From: Candidatus Kuenenbacteria bacterium
GTDB lineage: Bacteria > Patescibacteriota > Patescibacteriia > UBA11705 > JABHMO01
Assembly (NCBI GenBank): GCA_013202715.1
Contig: JABMRF010000046.1
Coordinates: forward strand, 1-57,310
Direction: 5' to 3'
DNA length: 57,310 bases
This document shows positions 5,994-55,360 of this stretch, one piece after another. Position 1 is the stretch's first letter; every line of letters begins with the position of its first letter. The notes beneath the pieces are model-generated. The model had not been told where the DNA came from. It did no database searches and was given only the letters and a program-made list of their open reading frames with translations. A program made the position numbers and the translations under genes.

Positions 5994-6779
5994 TTATAAA
6001 AGTAAACTTAAATACCAATCCAGAATTTGATTGCCCCAGATCAAGACAATAAATGTCGCGGCAGTTAAGAATACGCCAAACGGAACTTGGCTTTTCATTT
6101 TTTTAACTTTTGTTGCGAGTAATATTAAACTGATGATTGCGCCACCGATGTAGGCCATGAGTAAAGCCACTAACACATTTGGCCAGCCAAGTATAAATCC
6201 CATGGCCATACCAAGGCGAATATCGCCACCGCCGACCCATTTTCCTTTTGAAAAATAGTACTGAATCCAAAAAAATCCTGCGCCGATAATTCCGGCAATA
6301 ATTAAATTAATAGCAATTTCCAGATAATTTGTTGAATTGCTTAAAAGGAAAAAGTTAATAATAAAAGCAAAAACAGCCAGAGGAAGTGATACAGCATCCA
6401 ATATTAAATAAAAACGCAAATCAGTTGTAAAAATCACAACTAAACCAACGACAAATATCAAATCACGATAAAAAAACGGATTGGCCAGATTTCCAGCCAG
6501 ATTATAATGCCAGGCCAGAAAAACAAACAGAGCCGCAGTTGCAAATTCTACCAAAGGATACTGCCAAGAAATTTTCTTTTTACATTGCCGGCATTTTCCT
6601 TTTAAAATTAAAAAACTAAGGAGCGGGATCAAGTCCTGCGCTTTTAGATTTTCTTTGCAATGAGGGCAGTTTGACCTTGATTTTACAATCGACTCTTTTT
6701 CCGGTAAACGACAAATTACCACGTTCAAAAAACTGCCGATACAGAGGCCTATTACAAAGATCGGGATAAGGATTAGCAT
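5994..6779 (-). CDS. pilD: Prepilin peptidase
   Basis: GSFLNVVI.R, CxxC...CxxC zinc motif, TD and GGGD aspartic peptidase motifs, PFG.FL C-terminus. Confidence 0.93.
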   Translation of the reverse strand: MLILIPIFVIGLCIGSFLNVVICRLPEKESIVKSRSNCPHCKENLKAQDLIPLLSFLILKGKCRQCKKKISWQYPLVEFATAALFVFLAWHYNLAGNLANPFFYRDLIFVVGLVVIFTTDLRFYLILDAVSLPLAVFAFIINFFLLSNSTNYLEIAINLIIAGIIGAGFFWIQYYFSKGKWVGGGDIRLGMAMGFILGWPNVLVALLMAYIGGAIISLILLATKVKKMKSQVPFGVFLTAATFIVLIWGNQILDWYLSLLL

Positions 6780-12863: not shown

Positions 12864-13277
12864 TTAATTTATATCCACTTTATTTTTTTCAATAACCGGA
12901 GGTTTCGGTTTTTTGTCTTCAGAAGATTTAGAAATTAAAATGATTCCAACGATAATTCCGATAAAAAAGAATGGAATTGCTATTACACCTAAAAATCCCA
13001 ATATAATTTTAGCAATCGTTAAACCTTTTTCTTTGCCGGTCAATTCTGCGCCCTGCAAATCTTGATTAACTACTGACACACCATATTCTATTGCCGGCGC
13101 TTCTAAATCAGCCTGACCAGCGGATTGTTCAACCTCGATTACTTGCTGTTGTTTTGCGGCCATCAATTGCGAAGTTGCAAAGCTCATGATTCCGTAGAGT
13201 GTCAAAACAAGTGGAAGTAAGACAACTGCCAAAATAATTAAAAATATACCCAATTTCTTTTTTCCTTTGTTTGTCAT
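12864..13277 (-). CDS. Hypothetical two-TM membrane protein
   Basis: Two clear hydrophobic helices. Confidence 0.6.
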   Translation of the reverse strand: MTNKGKKKLGIFLIILAVVLLPLVLTLYGIMSFATSQLMAAKQQQVIEVEQSAGQADLEAPAIEYGVSVVNQDLQGAELTGKEKGLTIAKIILGFLGVIAIPFFFIGIIVGIILISKSSEDKKPKPPVIEKNKVDIN

Positions 13278-13289
13278 AAATTTTTATTT

Positions 13290-14168
13290 TTAATATTTAA
13301 CTCGCTCTATATTTATCTTTTCTTCAATAAACCGCTCGGCCTGTTTTTTGAAATTATCATTTAAATCTGTTACCAAATATCTTGTCTGTGAATTTTTTGT
13401 TAAACCCTTTTCAAGCTCTGCGTGTCGCTTTAAATATTCTGCCAAAGACTTTGCCACAATTTCGCCCGGATTTGGAACAAAACAACTCGGCCCCATGATA
13501 CTTTTTATTTGTTTAATGAGTAGCGGATAATGCGTACAGCCTAAAATCAAAACTTTCACCTTTGCCTGTTTCAAAGGCCGCAAATAATATCTTAATACCG
13601 ATTTAATTTCTTTGCGTCTATCCCAGCCCTCCTCAATCATCGGAACAAGGAGTGGGCATGCCCGCTGAACAATTCCCGTTTCCTCTTTAGTCTTTAAGCT
13701 TTGATCTTTACTCTTACTTTGCTCTTTGATCTTTGCTCCTTGCTCTTTTAATTCTACCATATATACATTTGAATTAACAGTCCCGCGTGTGCCAATAACT
13801 CCGACCGGATCTTTTCCAATTCGGTTAACCTCCTCTGCCATCGGTCTTACAACTCCTAATATATTTTCCTTTACTTGTCTTGCTAGTCTTGCTCGTCTCG
13901 CTTGTCTCGCTGGAAGGTGCTCCGTCTGCAAACGTCTTAGCGCTTTTGACGTTGCTGTATTACACGCCAAAATTATAAGCTTTAACCCATTATCAAATAA
14001 ATAGTCACAAGCCTTTCTGGTCAAATCATAAACTGCCTCATCAGATCTATTTCCGTAAGGAACGTGGAGCGTGTCGCCAAGGTACATGTAATCGTACTCA
14101 GGCAAGACGCGTTTAATTTCTTTTAAAACAGTTAAGCCGCCAAGGCCGCTGTCGAATATTCCGATCAT
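13290..14168 (-). CDS. murI: Glutamate racemase
   Basis: IGIFDSGLGGL, PYG, ACNTA and LGCTHYP motifs. Carries two low-complexity repeat insertions. Confidence 0.96.
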   Translation of the reverse strand: MIGIFDSGLGGLTVLKEIKRVLPEYDYMYLGDTLHVPYGNRSDEAVYDLTRKACDYLFDNGLKLIILACNTATSKALRRLQTEHLPARQARRARLARQVKENILGVVRPMAEEVNRIGKDPVGVIGTRGTVNSNVYMVELKEQGAKIKEQSKSKDQSLKTKEETGIVQRACPLLVPMIEEGWDRRKEIKSVLRYYLRPLKQAKVKVLILGCTHYPLLIKQIKSIMGPSCFVPNPGEIVAKSLAEYLKRHAELEKGLTKNSQTRYLVTDLNDNFKKQAERFIEEKINIERVKY

Positions 14169-14180
14169 ACAGTCGTCTTA

Positions 14181-14347
14181 AAGAGGGCTCCATAGTCCTG
14201 TTTTGAACAAAGTGAAAAACAGGCTGTGGAGTCCCGTTTGGGAACATATAAAAAGAGAAGCAATGGAGCAACAAATGCTAGGAGAGGTGTCTTTAAATGA
14301 TCCCTTATTAGGCTCCACAGTGCTTCGCAACTATGGAGCCCCCTTTA
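14181..14347. repeat. REP/REPIN-like composite palindrome (copy A)
   Basis: AAGAGGGCTCCATAG-hairpin-CTGTGGAGTCCC ... GGCTCCACAG-TGCTTCGCAA-CTATGGAGCCCCCTTT. Related copies at 16177-16294 and 51761-51817. Confidence 0.8.
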
Positions 14348-14386
14348 TAAGATAATGATAACACACCACTAAATTTACCACAAACC

Positions 14387-14415
14387 TTGACAACTTCACT
14401 AAACAATGCTACACT
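14387..14415 (+). promoter_or_regulatory. sigma70-type promoter
   Basis: TTGACA-N17-TACACT with extended -10 TG. Confidence 0.75.
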
Positions 14416-14567
14416 ACTCCAATGTAGTTCGTTTATAATAAGCTTAGTTTTTCATAGCCTTGGCCGGAATGTTGCTTTGCAAGGTGCAGAGTAAATGACC
14501 GACCTTGGCGATTGCTCTTACTGGCAGGACGTACGGGCCTCTCAGAAGAGCTTTTTGGAGGTGTACC

Positions 14568-15548
14568 ATGAGTGAAAACAAAGTGTCGTATCAAACAGAG
14601 GGATGCAAAGAATGTGAAAAGGGTGAACCCAAAAGACCTGCAGATGCTATTACTACATTTCAGGTTCTGACTGCGATATTGTTACTGTTTACTTGTTGTT
14701 GGGTAGTGAGTTTAATTGTGGGTGTAGCATTAAAAGGTCAGAGTTTCCTAAACACTGAGCATACCGTTGCGACACTTGGTCTTTGTGTTTTTAGCCTCAT
14801 GCTGTATATCATCTCAATGATCCTGGAAAAAAATATCTTCGAGCATGTATTCAAACAACACGGTAGTTGGCATACGCATTATGAGGTGCCAATCAGAGAA
14901 GGGGATGATTATATCTTTATGGGTGAAAACAAAGGCCGTGAAGATATGATTATCCATGGTCCAATCTTCAAACTGCAAATTTGTGGGTGGGGCAAAATGA
15001 GACACAGCACTCTTCAGGGAAATTTCAACGGCTGGGAAATCACCAAATACTACATTGGCGGAGATGGTAACCCATACATAGACCTGAAAAGAGGTCTCCA
15101 AACACGTCAAGAAATGGTCTGGATGGAAGCCGCCTACAATATTGTCGGCAATACCTGCGACCCCATTCACTGTCTGGCTGACCATGATTCCAGTTTAATA
15201 TTCGCCTACCAGCAACTTGCACTTCAGAAAGAAATCACCGACGAAGTGATTACTGATGTGATTGAACTCATCAGACTCTGGAAAAACTCAGAAAGATCCA
15301 ACGTGGGTATGGGCTCGCGAGTAATGCTCGAAGAGATGATGAAAGCTTTGCGGAAAGACCACGTGGAAAGTCAAAAAACAGAGCTACTTGATGAATCGAC
15401 GCAAATGCTTCTTGGTAGTGTCCGTGCGGTACTCCAACGGAATATCGCTGCCATTACAGAAAAGTCCGAAAAGGTTCGCGCCTTTGTTGGTAGCAAACCT
15501 CAATACTTGCCAAAACCGCAGGAAACTCCTGCTGAGGCCAACGGGTAA
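14568..15548 (+). CDS. Orphan hypothetical membrane protein (two N-terminal TM helices)
   Basis: ATG at 14568 preceded by a GGAGGT Shine-Dalgarno, with its own promoter and terminator. No family recognised. Confidence 0.7.
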   Translation: MSENKVSYQTEGCKECEKGEPKRPADAITTFQVLTAILLLFTCCWVVSLIVGVALKGQSFLNTEHTVATLGLCVFSLMLYIISMILEKNIFEHVFKQHGSWHTHYEVPIREGDDYIFMGENKGREDMIIHGPIFKLQICGWGKMRHSTLQGNFNGWEITKYYIGGDGNPYIDLKRGLQTRQEMVWMEAAYNIVGNTCDPIHCLADHDSSLIFAYQQLALQKEITDEVITDVIELIRLWKNSERSNVGMGSRVMLEEMMKALRKDHVESQKTELLDESTQMLLGSVRAVLQRNIAAITEKSEKVRAFVGSKPQYLPKPQETPAEANG

Positions 15549-15554
15549 CAAGAC

Positions 15555-15590
15555 AATCCTGTCCTTCAACTGAAGGACGGGATTTTTTTT
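15555..15590 (+). terminator. Intrinsic terminator
   Basis: AATCCTGTCCTTCA-ac-TGAAGGACGGGATT stem followed by a T run. Confidence 0.85.
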
Positions 15591-15662
15591 CAAGTCCTTG
15601 CCCTACCCCGCGCTTCCGTGATAAAATTATAGTAGAAGAAGTAACAATAATGGAGGAACAAG

Positions 15663-16130
15663 ATGAGTCATCCAACAAAATCAGCAGAACAATTTGAAGA
15701 TTCAATTTTAATAGGATCTGATCACGGTGGTTTTGAATTGAAACAAAAGATCATTGCTTATCTAAATGCCAATGGTTTTTCTGTCCAGGATGTTGGAACT
15801 TATTTCGACGAGTCCTGCGACTATCCTGATTTTGCCAAACTGGTTGCTGGACCAATTTCAAATGGCACGCATCGCCGTGGTATCCTAGTTTGCGGGACCG
15901 GACTCGGAATTTCAATTGCCGCCAACAAAATCAAAAATGTACGCGCCGCAGTTGGTTACAGTGAAGAGGCCACTCAAATGGCGCGCGAGCACAATGATGC
16001 TCACATCATCTGCTTTGGTGAGCGCACCATGGATCATGACACAGTTTTGAGATGCGTGAAGATCTTCCTGGAAACGCCTTTTTCAAACGGGGAGAGGCAT
16101 GTGAAAAGGCTTCAGAAAATCGAATCATAA
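15663..16130 (+). CDS. rpiB: Ribose-5-phosphate isomerase B
   Basis: GSDHGG, DYPD, CGTGLGISIAANK, AREHNDA, RH..RL motifs. Confidence 0.95.
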   Translation: MSHPTKSAEQFEDSILIGSDHGGFELKQKIIAYLNANGFSVQDVGTYFDESCDYPDFAKLVAGPISNGTHRRGILVCGTGLGISIAANKIKNVRAAVGYSEEATQMAREHNDAHIICFGERTMDHDTVLRCVKIFLETPFSNGERHVKRLQKIES

Positions 16131-16166
16131 CCCCTCCTAAATCCTCCCCTTGCTAAGGGGAGGACT
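16131..16166. repeat. Purine/pyrimidine-asymmetric palindrome (CCCCTCCT...AAGGGGAGGA type)
   Basis: CCCCTCCTAAATCCTCCCCTTGCTAAGGGGAGGA hairpin directly after the rpiB stop; could also act as a terminator. Confidence 0.55.
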
Positions 16167-16176
16167 TTTAAATTTA

Positions 16177-16294
16177 AAAGAGGGCTCCATAGTCCTGCCT
16201 GAAGCGTAGCGAAAGGCAGGCTGTGGAGTCCAAAATGGGGTCTTTTAAATTCCCCCACCAGGGCTCCACAGTGCGTCGCAACTATGGAGCCCCC
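16177..16294. repeat. REP/REPIN-like composite palindrome (copy B)
   Basis: AAAGAGGGCTCCATAGTCCTG...CAGGCTGTGGAGTCC and GGGCTCCACAGTGCGTCGCAACTATGGAGCCCC, in the same orientation as copy A. Confidence 0.8.
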
Positions 16295-16299
16295 GTCAG

Positions 16300-16334
16300 A
16301 AAAAAAACCCCACCTGCTACATTGTAACGGTGGG
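16300..16334 (-). terminator. Intrinsic terminator
   Basis: CCCACC...GGTGGG stem followed by a T run on the minus strand. Confidence 0.65.
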
Positions 16335-16416
16335 TCAATGTTTTTATGAAAGTAAATGATTACCAAATTTTGTGCATGACAGCCAAAATCAATTGAGTCT
16401 CGTCTAATTATACTGT

Positions 16417-17310
16417 CTATTTCAATCGATCTTCCAAGTATTCGCGAGAACGATTAATTTCAACCGTCACCGCGTTCGTTGTTTCAAGTATGGGAATACC
16501 CCTCGGCACTGGATGCATGAAAATTTCTGTCCAACCCGAGTAGTTGATCCGTCGCAACACTTTTAGCAACGGGCCGAAATCCAGGTTTCCACGTCCAGGC
16601 AATTGTTTTAGCTCCTGTTCCTTGGGGAGCTTCACATAGCATCCATCACCATATTGCCAAGCATAAAAGACGGCGATGGCACTGCCAAGTTCTTCTATCA
16701 AGGACGCAAGCAAGCCTACATCCTGAGGTAAATGGTAGGGAGCAAAGGCAACAGCAAGATGCTTCGAAGGACGAAGTTCCGCCAACCACTTTAGCGAATC
16801 GGGAGACCCAACAAGGCCATTGCCATGATTCTCAATGGCAATCGTTACTCCCACTTCCTCCGCTAGTGCTAGATGAGGCTTCATCTTTTCCAGGAATCTA
16901 TTTATTTCTTGCTTTAACGCTCTCCCCTTGAGTCCCTTTTTACCACGACTACCGGTTACGATTGTCCGACACCCCAAGCGCTGTGCTAGTCTCATCTCTG
17001 CCGTCAATTCAAATGGACCGAGTTGATGCTGAGTAATACAACCCAGGGAGATTTCGTGCTGATTCAGCATTTCTGTGAACCTCTCTTCTCCCATTGTGGC
17101 CAACTGTTCTCGCTGATTCCCATGTATTTTTGGCCAAATATCGATGGCCGTAGCGTGGGTCTTGCGTACTTCTGAAAAAATACTGGCCAGTGGTTCATAG
17201 CCGTACATGCACGATGCAAGCAGGCAATTCAAGCCACTAGAACTGTTATTTCCACCGATATCCTGATCACATTCAGGACGTTCACTATTGACGAAGTCAT
17301 ATTCTCCCAT
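16417..17310 (-). CDS. Sugar phosphate isomerase/epimerase (xylose-isomerase-like TIM barrel)
   Basis: GVTIAIENH, PG.G.LDF and GW.EI motifs of AP_endonuc_2-type barrels. Has an SD-like AAGGGGGT. Confidence 0.8.
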   Translation of the reverse strand: MGEYDFVNSERPECDQDIGGNNSSSGLNCLLASCMYGYEPLASIFSEVRKTHATAIDIWPKIHGNQREQLATMGEERFTEMLNQHEISLGCITQHQLGPFELTAEMRLAQRLGCRTIVTGSRGKKGLKGRALKQEINRFLEKMKPHLALAEEVGVTIAIENHGNGLVGSPDSLKWLAELRPSKHLAVAFAPYHLPQDVGLLASLIEELGSAIAVFYAWQYGDGCYVKLPKEQELKQLPGRGNLDFGPLLKVLRRINYSGWTEIFMHPVPRGIPILETTNAVTVEINRSREYLEDRLK

Positions 17311-17401
17311 TAATTACCCCCTTAAAATCGAATAATCTTGACCCTCTAGCAATAAAAGTATCCTGTACCAGCTCCTTAATAATGTTTTCAAATCACTTAG
17401 T

Positions 17402-17430
17402 ATTGTATATTGGAAAAACTGTTTTGTCAA
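17402..17430 (-). promoter_or_regulatory. sigma70-type promoter
   Basis: TTGACA-N17-TACAAT on the minus strand, upstream of the isomerase. Confidence 0.75.
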
Positions 17431-17442
17431 TAATCATGTATC

Positions 17443-17479
17443 AAAAAACCCACCACACTGAATCATCCAGTTGGTGGGA
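17443..17479 (-). terminator. Intrinsic terminator
   Basis: CCCACCA...TGGTGGG stem followed by T6 on the minus strand. Confidence 0.65.
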
Positions 17480-17483
17480 TTAT

Positions 17484-17774
17484 TTATTTTTTATTTCTGA
17501 ACTTCTTCACCCAACACCCCTTTACCAACCCAACCGTCAAAGTTGAAAGCAAAAAGGCCACCGCCGGCACAATCGAATTCACAAATGGTTTTGTTAATCC
17601 GGCAACAAAGAAAAAGATTACAAAAAAGATATAAGTAACCACGGCAATCAAAATCCGCCGAGTCCAGCTGGTTTCCCAGGCCTTGTCAGCTTCAACGCGC
17701 TGATTGCGTTTTTTTATTTGCACGATTTCGTTTTCTATATTCATAATTTTATCACGAATTTCGCTAATTCTCAC
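17484..17774 (-). CDS. Small two-TM hypothetical protein
   Basis: RN.RVEADKAWETSW.RR followed by two TM helices. Confidence 0.7.
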   Translation of the reverse strand: MRISEIRDKIMNIENEIVQIKKRNQRVEADKAWETSWTRRILIAVVTYIFFVIFFFVAGLTKPFVNSIVPAVAFLLSTLTVGLVKGCWVKKFRNKK

Positions 17775-36594: not shown

Positions 36595-37647
36595 TTAATC
36601 CAAATCTACAAACTTCCAGATTTTAGCTTCATCCATATACTCAGCCATATATTCGTCAAAAGAAGTCGGACTGATCAAAATATGTCTAGCGTGAACCATT
36701 TCTTCCATTCCTTCTTCTGCCTCATCAAATTCTTTTTTCTCTTCAACCTTTATAATATGATAGCCAAACTGAGTTTTAACTAAATCTGAAACAGTGCCCA
36801 CTTCCATTGCAAACGCGACATCTTCAAATTCCTGTACCATAACACCCTTTGGAAACCAACCCAAATCACCACCTTGTTCACCGCTTCCAGGATCATCACT
36901 AAATTCAATAGCTAGATCTTCAAAAGATTTATCCCCACTATTAACAAGTTTTAAAACCATTTTTGCCTCTTTTTCGACCGCGGCCTGTGCTTTTTCTGAT
37001 CCTGAGATTTCACTTCTTAATTTTTCTTCAAGAACAATTGGATAAATAATCCGCTCACTAAAAACATTCAGATCCCAACCAAACAGATCCTTGATTTCCT
37101 GCTCTAATTTTTCAGGACCTTCTTGCTGATCTGCTAAACCATTTATTTTTTCTTGAAGATCTTCTTCTGTTACTTTGACATCAAATCCTTTTGCTATTTT
37201 TCTAAGTATGATTTCCTGAGTTAATTTATCGAGTACACCTGCCTGTATTTCTAAAACATCCGCCTCGCCAAATCTTTTTTGATTGAACATCACGCCGGCA
37301 TCAGTCTCAAATTTCCAGTCATGATAGGTAATAATCTTTCCATCGACCATTGCTGCAGGGTATGGGATAGCGCTCATTAAACCATTTGCAAATTTATTAT
37401 CCCACCCAAATTTATAAACTCCGAAGCCACTGATCCCCAAGGCAAAGACAATAAGCACGACAATACTCACAACGATCAAGAGAACTCTTCTATCCCAATC
37501 TTTGACATGGGTAACAGCTTTCCTAGCTCCATTTGCCGCTTTTTTGCTACCTGACTTTAGCTTTTTCTTTACTTTTTCTAGTTTGTTTTTTTTCTCTTTA
37601 TGTTCATCCTTTTCCAATTTGTTTTCACTCTCGTGTAAATTTTCCAT
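36595..37647 (-). CDS. PrsA/SurA-like parvulin peptidyl-prolyl isomerase
   Basis: N-terminal TM, SurA-N-like region, FEDLA.EFSDD.GS...GGDLGWF.KG.MV.EFE, FGYHIIKV. Confidence 0.88.
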   Translation of the reverse strand: MENLHESENKLEKDEHKEKKNKLEKVKKKLKSGSKKAANGARKAVTHVKDWDRRVLLIVVSIVVLIVFALGISGFGVYKFGWDNKFANGLMSAIPYPAAMVDGKIITYHDWKFETDAGVMFNQKRFGEADVLEIQAGVLDKLTQEIILRKIAKGFDVKVTEEDLQEKINGLADQQEGPEKLEQEIKDLFGWDLNVFSERIIYPIVLEEKLRSEISGSEKAQAAVEKEAKMVLKLVNSGDKSFEDLAIEFSDDPGSGEQGGDLGWFPKGVMVQEFEDVAFAMEVGTVSDLVKTQFGYHIIKVEEKKEFDEAEEGMEEMVHARHILISPTSFDEYMAEYMDEAKIWKFVDLD

Positions 37648-51501: not shown

Positions 51502-51900
51502 CTATTCAATGAGTTTCAACTCTAGACTTTTGACTCTAGACTCTTGACTTAACCGTATATAACCATTGATAAACTTGTTAATCCTTTATGCTTTTGACAA
51601 TATTTCAAGCTGTCAATAATAATTTTAAAATATTTTGGTTTTGTAAAAATATCAATCCACTCGATGATTGTCAATGTTAAAAAGTGAGTTACATTTTCGT
51701 TTTCTTTATGGATTCTGAGTACTGGCATATAATCTTCCCGTTTTTAAGTATCCTCATTGTGGACTCCATAGCTATTCCCCGCCTTACGGACGATGAATAG
51801 ACTATGGAGCCCCCTTTAATTAAACTATTCAATGAGTTTCAACTCTAGACTTTTGACTCTTGACTTTTGACTTAACCGTGGATAGCCATTGATAAACTTG
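51502..51900. repeat. 76-bp direct repeat pair (51502-51577 and 51825-51900)
   Basis: Manual alignment gives 71/76 identity. It duplicates the 3' end of the lamin-tail gene. Confidence 0.9.
51761..51817. repeat. REP-like palindrome (copy C)
   Basis: GGACTCCATAG-CTATTC...GAATAG-ACTATGGAGCCCCCTTT. Confidence 0.75.
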
Positions 51901-54205: not shown

Positions 54206-54919
54206 CTAGGCTATTTGTAATGTTTGTTTAGCCGGAACACTTGCATCTAAACGTAACTTTAAAGTGTCAATATCCTGAAGATCTTCAGATAAATAAAGAT
54301 ATGGATATTTTTCAACTGTTTCAACCAATTTCCAACGTTCAGAAAGCGGTGTACCCATAATCCGATCTGATTTTTCCTGTATTGCTTTATCATCATTAAT
54401 TGGCAAGGTGTATGTTTTTGGAGTCCAAACTTTATAGCGTTTGTTTTCTTCAAAATTTTTAGCCTGCGCTTCAAATGTCCACAATATTTTCTGCGGAGTT
54501 GAACGCATAACTCGTTCATTTCCTTTGAACAATTCAAATATTTCATAAGCGCCGTCTTTAATTTCAGCACGCAAATTTTTCATAATTTCAATTGCCACCT
54601 GACCCTTTACTTCAGCCAGGATTTTCCCAGGATTATCCTGATTTTCAGGAAGCTTAAACAGCCAGAGAAAAAAGTTTGGCATTACCACATAAGCTAAGTT
54701 CTTAATGTCCATTTTTAATTCAGCCAATTTAATCGCATTAGCCACCAAGTCCATGTATTCTTTGGTTACAAAAACATTTTTGCGGCCGATAATTTCACCA
54801 TAGTGAAAGTAAGTACCGCCGGCCTGTTTAAAAGGCTTGTCAAACTTCTTTTTTCCTTTTGTTTTTTCCTCTTTTTGACCACCGTCATTGCCAGTGGTCT
54901 GGTTTTTTTCTTTTGTCAT
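54206..54919 (-). CDS. RAYT/IS200-type Y1 transposase homolog with degenerate active site
   Basis: GGTYF, AYVVMPN, VW...Y...I.D...I..K....P....LV....YPY match the RAYT layout. The HUH positions read F/L and the catalytic Tyr position reads R. Confidence 0.72.
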   Translation of the reverse strand: MTKEKNQTTGNDGGQKEEKTKGKKKFDKPFKQAGGTYFHYGEIIGRKNVFVTKEYMDLVANAIKLAELKMDIKNLAYVVMPNFFLWLFKLPENQDNPGKILAEVKGQVAIEIMKNLRAEIKDGAYEIFELFKGNERVMRSTPQKILWTFEAQAKNFEENKRYKVWTPKTYTLPINDDKAIQEKSDRIMGTPLSERWKLVETVEKYPYLYLSEDLQDIDTLKLRLDASVPAKQTLQIA

Positions 54920-54988: not shown

Positions 54989-55360
54989 TTATTTCTTCTT
55001 CTCTCGTAATGACTTTACAATTGATCCAAAGATCCGCGCAATCTCTTCAACCTCCAGCAACAAAGCATCCAATTCCTCCAAATCTCCTAATTCAGCCTCT
55101 TTTAAAAGCAATAGCCAAAATTGAGATTCATTTGCAGATTTCAAAGAATGATTGTTAAAATTCGCAAAATCCTTCCTTGAAGAGCCAGCGATTGCTTCAA
55201 AATAATTCGCGCCTATACTTGTTATGCTTTTCACCAGCTGAAACCGAACAACCCGCGCTAGTGGATTTTTCCAATCCAAACATTCACAAAATTTTACAAC
55301 TCTTAAAATCAGACAAAAAAGCCTTGCTTTAAACTTTTTACTAAATTCATTATTGTTCAT
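54989..55360 (-). CDS. Four-helix-bundle protein (TIGR02436 / 23S rRNA-IVP-like), copy B
   Basis: QLVKSITSIGANYFEA...SSRKDF......LKSANESQFWL.LL motif. Confidence 0.9.
   Translation of the reverse strand: MNNNEFSKKFKARLFCLILRVVKFCECLDWKNPLARVVRFQLVKSITSIGANYFEAIAGSSRKDFANFNNHSLKSANESQFWLLLLKEAELGDLEELDALLLEVEEIARIFGSIVKSLREKKK

Follow-up and report, generated by a model that had tools for sequence, protein, structure and literature searches.

Two composite palindromes lie in the same orientation on either side of an orphan gene and rpiB, close to murI, in a contig of Candidatus Kuenenbacteria (Patescibacteria; JABMRF010000046.1, analysed over 57,310 nucleotides, hereafter the window). This contig, C45 in the coordinates given below, belongs to a 1.30 Mb assembly of 60 contigs and 38.8% G+C, G000. 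The locus raises the question of what these palindromes are and of whether they brought the two genes to this place, as proposed in the initial annotation, where the pair was viewed as a composite insertion mobilised or captured through the repeats. The evidence assembled here makes it very probable that both composites are REPINs, that is, doublets of repetitive extragenic palindromes (REPs), of a small and old family once moved by a REP-associated tyrosine transposase (RAYT) of which only a stump is left, and that they landed beside long-resident genes without delivering them.

The two composites, 14180-14347 (REPIN A) and 16177-16294 (REPIN B), are real and their orientation is identical, as had been claimed. 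Direct repeats relate 14180-14252 to 16177-16249 (75% identity) and 14311-14355 to 16262-16306 (87% identity), and the polarity is the same in both, with a long-topped unit on the left and a short-topped unit on the right. The outer inverted arms measure 18 nt in REPIN A (14179-14196 / 14330-14347, 94% complementary) and 12 nt in REPIN B (16182-16193 / 16281-16292, 100% complementary). The GCTCCAYAG motif occurs seven times in the window for 0.31 expected, a number attained in none of 100 shuffles. Folded as single-stranded DNA, REPIN A reaches -36.3 kcal/mol (z = -6.3) and REPIN B -33.6 kcal/mol (z = -7.2). In the doublets, outer arm pairs perfectly with outer arm and inner arm with inner arm; because of this pairing, the minimum-energy single-strand fold of each whole composite is a four-way junction.

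Each composite contains twice a hairpin unit, GGGGGCTCCATAG-T-(variable stem-loop)-CTGTGGAGTCC, inverted around a spacer. Once oriented, every arm pair reads (A)AAGRG-GGCTCCATAG-T-(top)-CTGTGGAG-YCC. The unit is a hairpin of 30-50 nt made of a base stem, a bulged T and an extension stem of free sequence, often capped by a GAA loop. The base stem (GGCTCCATAG / CTGTGGAGYC) is an invariant helix of 10-11 bp that includes a fixed T.G wobble, ATAG being paired with CTGT within the unit; on the opposite strand, the wobble becomes an A.C mismatch. When the long units are folded one by one, their MAFFT alignment being out of register, all the units (16/16) form a single hairpin in which the bulged T follows ATAG. 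TTGCGAAGCA makes up the short top; GCGAAGC, whose loop is GAA, is a classic DNA mini-hairpin of great stability. The extension stem takes seven different sequences (CCTGTTC/GAACAGG, CCTGTTTT/AAAACAGG, CCTGCCT/AGGCAGG, CTCTTC/GAAGAG, CCCTTC/GAAGGG, CTATTC/GAATAG and CTGCC/GGCAG). All seven remain complementary and, therefore, structure rather than sequence is kept in the variable part. The initial annotation had noted conserved arms and differing loops and had seen structural selection in this contrast. The conservation of structure stands, but the so-called loops are themselves stems, and hairpin-templated repair could produce the same pattern of complementarity without any selection. The ATAG tetranucleotide had also been likened to the GTAG foot of known REPs. 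This analogy has to be abandoned, ATAG being located inside the hairpin, at the top of the conserved stem; the actual 5' foot is GTTG, GCTG or GCCG (GYYG) in other genomes of the candidate phyla radiation (CPR) and GGGG or GAGG (GRGG) in G000. In described REPs, the 5' foot is GTAG or a degenerate G-T-A-G tetranucleotide (PMC3733652).

A genome-wide count of the element, suggested at the outset as a check, gave 11 loci in G000. Six are doublets (C33:29267, C33:124931, C45:14185 for REPIN A, C45:16182 for REPIN B, C52:8536 and C59:28057) and five are single or partial copies (C17:54924, C38:63930, C45:51761, C46:7617 and C58:21631), for a total of 16 full units plus truncated ones. Ten of the 11 loci are intergenic and one is within grpE. 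With this distribution and a copy number far above chance, the family qualifies as REP sequences, and the six gene-less doublets, with the folds of REPIN A and REPIN B, fit the definition of REPINs (PMC3116915). The short-top-to-long-top design is found in four of them. Pairwise identity among doublets ranges from 52 to 78% (76% for REPIN A versus REPIN B, 78% for the C52 versus the C59 doublet). Near-identical copies, as expected around the master sequence of an active population, are absent from G000. Several REP loci of this genome adjoin genes without a Pfam family, and no nuclease or transposase was found adjoining its REP loci.

The partnership with a RAYT is documented by other genomes. 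In a collection comprising one genome per species, at least 115 stretches matched the pattern GGCTCCATAG-N(8-38)-CTGTGGAG, several hundred random matches being expected in that collection by our own estimate. Among the matches listed, the gap length of the hairpins shows a strong peak at 10-11 nt, and the hairpins of this peak have common flanks (cGTT-...-CCtaaaTGCaa) and come mostly from metagenome-assembled genomes (MAGs) of Patescibacteria, with many copies on some contigs. Clustering of the open reading frames (ORFs) around 49 hairpin-bearing loci yielded no common neighbour except a RAYT. At two loci, L117 (Doudnabacteria, JBAZQX010000010) and L095 (JAJYLD010000005), a gene stands exactly between two inverted hairpins. 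The L117 protein obtains 103.8 bits on NF047646, the NCBIfam model of REP-associated tyrosine transposases (cut-off, 80 bits), and matches Pfam Y1_Tnp. It possesses both the HUH motif and the catalytic tyrosine (NHIHL, YIHENPVK) and aligns with TnpAREP of E. coli (PDB 4ER8) over NHIHL/EHMHC and YIHENPVK/YIYINPVK, with a marginal E-value (0.0035). Homologues of this RAYT (E <= 1e-10) occur in 10 of 400 sampled Patescibacteria genomes. Inverted GGCTCCATAG hairpins flank the gene in L117, in L095 and in the close homologues L167, L168, L169 and L171 (61-100% identity), and more distant homologues (about 52-62%) retain the layout GTTGG-stem...stem-CCAtaaaTG with other stem sequences. A complete REPtron, in which the RAYT gene lies between two REPs as known from Proteobacteria, is present in L117, L095, L168, L169 and L171, whereas G000 keeps only a stump and one REP.

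The same REP, with its typical flanks, was also seen on several contigs (L051, L058, L082, L101 and L121) of a MAG labelled Nitrospinia (JAJDAS01) and in L084, from a MAG labelled Gammaproteobacteria. Either the REP has crossed from one phylum to another, or contigs of CPR origin were binned into those MAGs. Matches in five Pseudomonas genomes (L050, L078, L086, L089 and L100) were set aside: they correspond to one conserved hairpin with the same 10-nt arms and without RAYT context, probably a chance coincidence of sequence. Judging from ORF translations alone, this Pseudomonas hairpin is flanked by two genes that look like pssA and msrP (yedY).

What remains of the RAYT in G000 lies in the window itself. 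With the L117 RAYT as query, tblastn on G000 finds 74% identity over residues 1-57 (51558-51728, minus strand). The match begins 33 nt downstream of a single REP (51761-51812), the orientation of which is that of the upstream REP in intact REPtrons. With about 50 homologous residues, its reading frame stops short of both the HUH motif and the catalytic tyrosine, and the stump scores 22.2 bits on NF047646, on model positions 6-54 only, far from the curated threshold that the L117 protein passes. A 23S-IVP-type gene (PF05635) follows, and a 76-nt direct repeat with 93% identity (51502-51577 / 51825-51900) brackets the REP and the stump. The RAYT is truncated by some rearrangement tied to the 23S-IVP-type cassette. 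The 76-nt repeat itself is composed of the heptamer-array arm of this cassette and of the 3' end of a 744-aa ORF. The stump is the sole match to an L117-type RAYT in the 60 contigs of the assembly, and a cognate RAYT was not found in four congeners either. The proposal of REPIN-like doublets with a link to a RAYT is therefore retained, given the doublet layout, the presence of the same hairpin around RAYTs elsewhere and the stump with its REP; the GTAG-foot analogy is lost.

Other Y1/RAYT-like genes of G000 (four Pfam matches and 11 NCBIfam matches, all under the NCBIfam cut-off) were considered as possible mobilisers and rejected: the repeats that flank them differ, or the gene contains a stop codon or is broken, or the HUH motif is missing. 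These 11 matches indicate that several hairpin/enzyme families coexist in G000. A 237-aa RAYT-like ORF (54206-54919, minus strand; 53 bits on NF047646) has PNFFLWL in place of the HUH motif and is probably an inactive paralogue; it adjoins a second 23S-IVP-type gene (54989-55360). Direct copies of a repeat, about 100 nt each (C17:5620-5730 and 6295-6405), stand on both sides of a further RAYT-like gene (C17:5723-6280, 74.8 bits). The repeat in question differs from the REPIN family, has CCCCACTTCAGTGGG hairpins and is also found at C52:~37350-37450.

It can be proposed that the composites are non-autonomous elements mobilised in trans by a RAYT, an HUH/Y1 transposase acting on single-stranded DNA. 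A REPtron would have seeded about 11 loci in G000. The RAYT would then have been truncated, leaving the stump at 51549-51728, and the copies would have been drifting since. The most likely course for REPIN A and REPIN B is an insertion into two distinct intergenic spacers of a murI-PGM interval that would already have housed rpiB and the orphan. Because the RAYT is only a stump and the copies are divergent, we infer that the family has lost its mobiliser; as far as can be read from the DNA, it looks old and is probably immobile now.

Copies in congeners bear on this age. An exact-pattern search found no REP copy in 60 relatives. With two mismatches allowed, two relic copies appeared in the congener G003. 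The first (G003:C1:488438-488471) is orthologous to the copy at C38:63930 (C38:63927-63970), in frame inside grpE (PF01025); the insert encodes TPQSASGRTMEPPS in G000 and, with a partial duplication, TPQAVSGRTMERPS in G003, and G004, G002 and G001 have no such insert. The second is a single REP beside a terminator, found only in G003, the orthologous site of G000 being without REP. Since the grpE copy is common to G000 and G003 and the second relic is restricted to G003, the family is at least as old as the split between these two genomes, and sites have been gained or lost since. As for the nearest relative of G000, GrpE favours G003 and PGM favours G004.

Whether the REPINs delivered the genes that they bracket can be judged from the gene order in relatives, including the congeners G003 and G004. 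In G000, the order is murI(-), REPIN A, orphan(+), rpiB(+), REPIN B, TIM-barrel gene(-), orf96(-) and PGM(-). In G004, it is murI(-), two small ORFs(+), rpiB(+, 77% identity) and PGM(-). G003 has murI, two small ORFs and PGM, without rpiB, and other cargo occupies the murI-PGM gap in G002 and G006. Overall, rpiB was found in two of 16 relatives. A terminator hairpin homologous to 16301-16337 of G000 lies 18 nt after the rpiB stop codon of G004, so that G004 represents a REPIN B-free version of the site; the stop codon and this shared terminator are separated in G000 by the hairpin proper to rpiB and by REPIN B. From the synteny with G004 and the shared terminator, it follows that rpiB pre-dates the repeats or is independent of them.

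The orphan leads to the same view. Its 326-aa reading from ATG 14568 gave no match in a Pfam and NCBIfam scan, and an exact-sequence look-up found it not on record. A HMMER scan of 1.84 billion representative proteins returned three distant homologues (34%, 30% and 30% identity). In L197, the homologue lies between a cargo gene of the G006 type and the 3' end of PGM, and in L199, between an M50 protease gene and the PGM gene. Orphan homologues thus adjoin PGM without rpiB, and the orphan, too, should pre-date the repeats or be independent of them. No REP motif is present in the L040-L043, L197 and L199 loci; CGCTCCATAG in L198 is a near-match to the REP and was rejected as such. When the window is set beside L040-L043, L197 and L199, its segment 14169-17847, which separates murI (or the M50 protease gene) from PGM, is a hot spot of gene turnover in which the small cargo differs in each relative examined. 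As rpiB and the orphan are both found there in genomes without the repeats, they are residents of this variable interval.

Two side observations concern the orphan family. Upstream of the start codon, 14460-14504, L197:650-730 and L198:140-188 share a stretch, ..CAGCCTTGGnnGAAATGyTTGC.., conserved at the DNA level although the proteins share only 30-34% identity. It may act as a regulatory leader or encode an N-terminal extension, and the similarity supports a putative TTG start at 14505 (347 aa) for the orphan. Downstream of the homologues, at L197:1775-2059 and L198:1440-1531, there is a different palindromic repeat (GGGACAGAATGCGATTC...).

Among the explanations that compete with this reading, one would make the REPINs a recombination boundary: as dispersed homologous or hairpin DNA, they would have aided swaps of cargo in the murI-PGM hot spot, for example by putting the orphan in place of the two small ORFs of G003 and G004. 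The cargo of the interval does differ among G000, G002, G003, G004 and G006; orf126 of G003 and orf95 of G004 are homologous (E = 3e-9), and neither small ORF is present in G000. The genes without Pfam family next to several REP loci would also fit. However, the hot spot is equally variable in repeat-free relatives, the orphan family occupies the same interval of other repeat-free genomes, and no comparison made places a breakpoint at a REPIN edge, which renders such a role unlikely.

It is highly unlikely that the two REPINs are the ends of one composite mobile unit that inserted the orphan and rpiB next to murI, as first suggested. Two like-oriented doublets bracketing two plus-strand genes, their mildly unlikely proximity (0.02-0.05 by chance) and the rarity of rpiB in the relatives may evoke such a unit. 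The synteny argues otherwise: the rpiB of G004 has the same site and the same terminator without repeats, and the orphan homologues lie by PGM with neither rpiB nor repeats in L197 and L199, so that the bracketed genes are not missing from repeat-free relatives as those of a composite transposon should be. The initial annotation had itself named the comparison around murI as a check, synteny of both genes with murI in relatives lacking the repeats being the outcome that would tell against it. This outcome is observed for each gene taken separately, in different relatives, and no relative has the two together. The pair does interrupt a run of minus-strand genes, as had been noticed, but a relative without the repeats has this strand switch as well. 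In addition, REPIN A and REPIN B resemble each other no more than unrelated copies do, the TIM-barrel gene, also lineage-specific, falls outside the bracket, and Y1/RAYT systems are, to our knowledge, not known as movers of composite cargo.

The positions of the two REPINs could also suggest a non-mobile structured RNA or regulatory element, such as a leader, a terminator or a small RNA. The folds are strong and carry compensatory changes. With its edge 11 nt upstream of the start codon of murI, which is conserved, REPIN A falls in the leader of this gene or adjoins it, and no promoter was detected on the minus strand nearby; for these reasons, REPIN A would be part of the leader of murI or hold its promoter. 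REPIN B sits between two convergent terminators, namely rpiB's own terminator hairpin and a conserved bidirectional one, a common position for REPs. Nevertheless, Rfam gave no match on either element (two hits in 13000-17500, outside both and far below gathering scores), copies occur in both orientations relative to genes, one of them being part of the grpE reading frame, and in other genomes the repeat is found on either side of RAYT genes. It is thus extremely unlikely that the family is of this nature, even if individual REPINs may be used secondarily as leader or terminator and might influence the expression of murI or rpiB. Finally, there is virtually no chance that the composites are miniature inverted-repeat transposable elements (MITEs) of a DDE-type insertion sequence, mobilised via terminal inverted repeats: the 16-18 nt outer arms (AAAGRGGGCTCCATAG / CTATGGAGCCCCCTTT) resemble such ends, but no target-site duplication is visible at the copies, single half-units occur, and, whatever the genome, Y1 RAYTs are the sole genes observed between these arms.

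It should be noted that several points weigh against the REPIN interpretation preferred here. Eleven loci is a low count for a REPIN population, and the classical GTAG tag is absent from the REPs of G000. The search for an active RAYT elsewhere in the genome, advised together with the census, ended with the stump: no intact cognate RAYT is present in the assembly, of which an unassembled copy is possible given the 60 contigs. REPIN B is absent at the orthologous site of G004, one copy is found only in G003 and another is shared in grpE, changes of which the direction is ambiguous; with the branching of G000, G003 and G004 also ambiguous, a gain of REPIN B in G000 is indistinguishable from a precise loss in G004. 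Lastly, under random placement, all values being post hoc, two of six doublets would fall within 2.1 kb of each other with P = 0.046, or P = 0.023 if the same orientation is imposed, any two of the 11 loci would be as close with P = 0.16, and at least three of the 11 would be on contig C45 with P = 0.010. At P of about 0.02-0.05 for the doublets, some local bias exists. The closeness of REPIN A and REPIN B is compatible with insertion near the RAYT gene or in a permissive region of high gene turnover, and it does not revive the composite model.

The features of the window are collected below; the minus strand was assigned to REPIN A as the canonical short-to-long reading.

Coordinates of the two REPINs, the RAYT stump and their neighbours in the window
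Feature	Position	Strand	Remarks
murI (glutamate racemase family)	13290..14168	-	conserved, syntenic in relatives
REPIN A	14180..14347	-	168 nt; long-topped REP 14185-14234, 76-nt spacer, short-topped REP 14310-14341
Orphan, 347 aa	14505..15548	+	very rare family
rpiB (ribose-5-phosphate isomerase B)	15663..16130	+	77% identical to same-site copy in congener G004
Terminator-like hairpin	16142..16164	+	immediately 3' of rpiB
REPIN B	16177..16294	-	118 nt; long-topped REP 16182-16231, spacer, short-topped REP 16261-16292
Bidirectional terminator hairpin	16300..16346	.	common to G000 and G004
Xylose-isomerase-like TIM-barrel gene	16417..17310	-	outside REPIN bracket; in 0/16 relatives
RAYT stump	51549..51728	-	residues 1-57 74% identical to intact Doudnabacteria RAYT; adjoins 23S-IVP-type gene cassette
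Single REP	51761..51812	-	same family; 33 nt upstream of RAYT stump

In terms of annotation, the palindromes become REPINs, the ORF at 51549-51728 becomes a RAYT pseudogene, and the orphan and rpiB are not a mobile island. The locus adds the case of a RAYT-less REPIN family in a very small genome, with one copy fixed in grpE and another directly before murI. Moreover, a binding or cleavage assay would find defined substrates in the intact RAYTs of related MAGs and in the invariant stem with the bulged T and T.G wobble. In a literature search, loose enough to be satisfied by CPR terms only, none of the ten best-ranked of 639 papers had the RAYT phrase. Several Patescibacteria classes have the same 20 bases in the stem, possibly along with MAGs labelled as other phyla; the RAYT is patchy in the phylum, and the G000 stump is 74% identical to a RAYT from outside the class of G000. 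One may tentatively imagine that the REP/RAYT pair spreads horizontally, in contrast to proteobacterial REPIN-RAYT systems, for which inheritance is reported to be strictly vertical, and that the hairpins outlived their enzyme to be reused as a murI leader and as an in-frame GrpE insert, but this extension is rather doubtful.

Earlier work offers precedents for the layout and for the RAYT partnership, as well as for the G.T pair and the intragenic copy (PMC3116915, PMC3733652, PMC3479197). As in the REPINs of Pseudomonas fluorescens SBW25 (Bertels and Rainey, 2011; PMC3116915), one long hairpin is formed by two inverted REPs with their spacer, the variable part shows compensatory changes, singlets occur beside doublets, and the RAYT gene is flanked by the same REPs, here in relatives. 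Unlike in SBW25, where REPINs occupy hundreds of loci, G000 has 11, with no near-identical copies and a truncated RAYT; each of its REPs also has a long extension stem of free sequence, and the host is a Patescibacteria with a 1.3 Mb genome. The REP and bacterial interspersed mosaic elements (BIMEs) of E. coli, with the TnpAREP (RayT/YafM) REPtron (PDB 4ER8; PMC3479197; PMC3733652), share with the present family an HUH/Y1 gene placed between inverted REP hairpins, a stem that contains a bulge and G.T pairs, and a short, conserved 5' foot as well as a 3' tail. They differ by their foot, GTAG instead of GYYG or GRGG, the protein similarity to 4ER8 is marginal (E = 0.0035), and cleavage is only presumed in our case.

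With the IS200/IS605 insertion sequences, which combine a TnpA Y1 transposase and imperfect hairpins in subterminal position, the family has in common the Y1 superfamily (Pfam Y1_Tnp) and, presumably, the recognition of imperfect single-stranded hairpins. However, dispersal here concerns hairpin doublets only, without multiplication of the enzyme gene along with its ends, and the NCBI IS200 model gives a score of 20.4 for a cut-off of 55 bits. The copy kept in frame in grpE, as coding sequence in two species, recalls the Rickettsia palindromic elements and intragenic REPs (PMC3733652), from which the present family departs in being mainly extragenic (one intragenic locus out of 11) and in having a RAYT partner. 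Composite transposons and MITE-bracketed units likewise show two like-oriented repeats around two genes but, unlike in these units, the enclosed genes did not arrive with the repeats here, as is shown by the synteny in relatives devoid of repeats.

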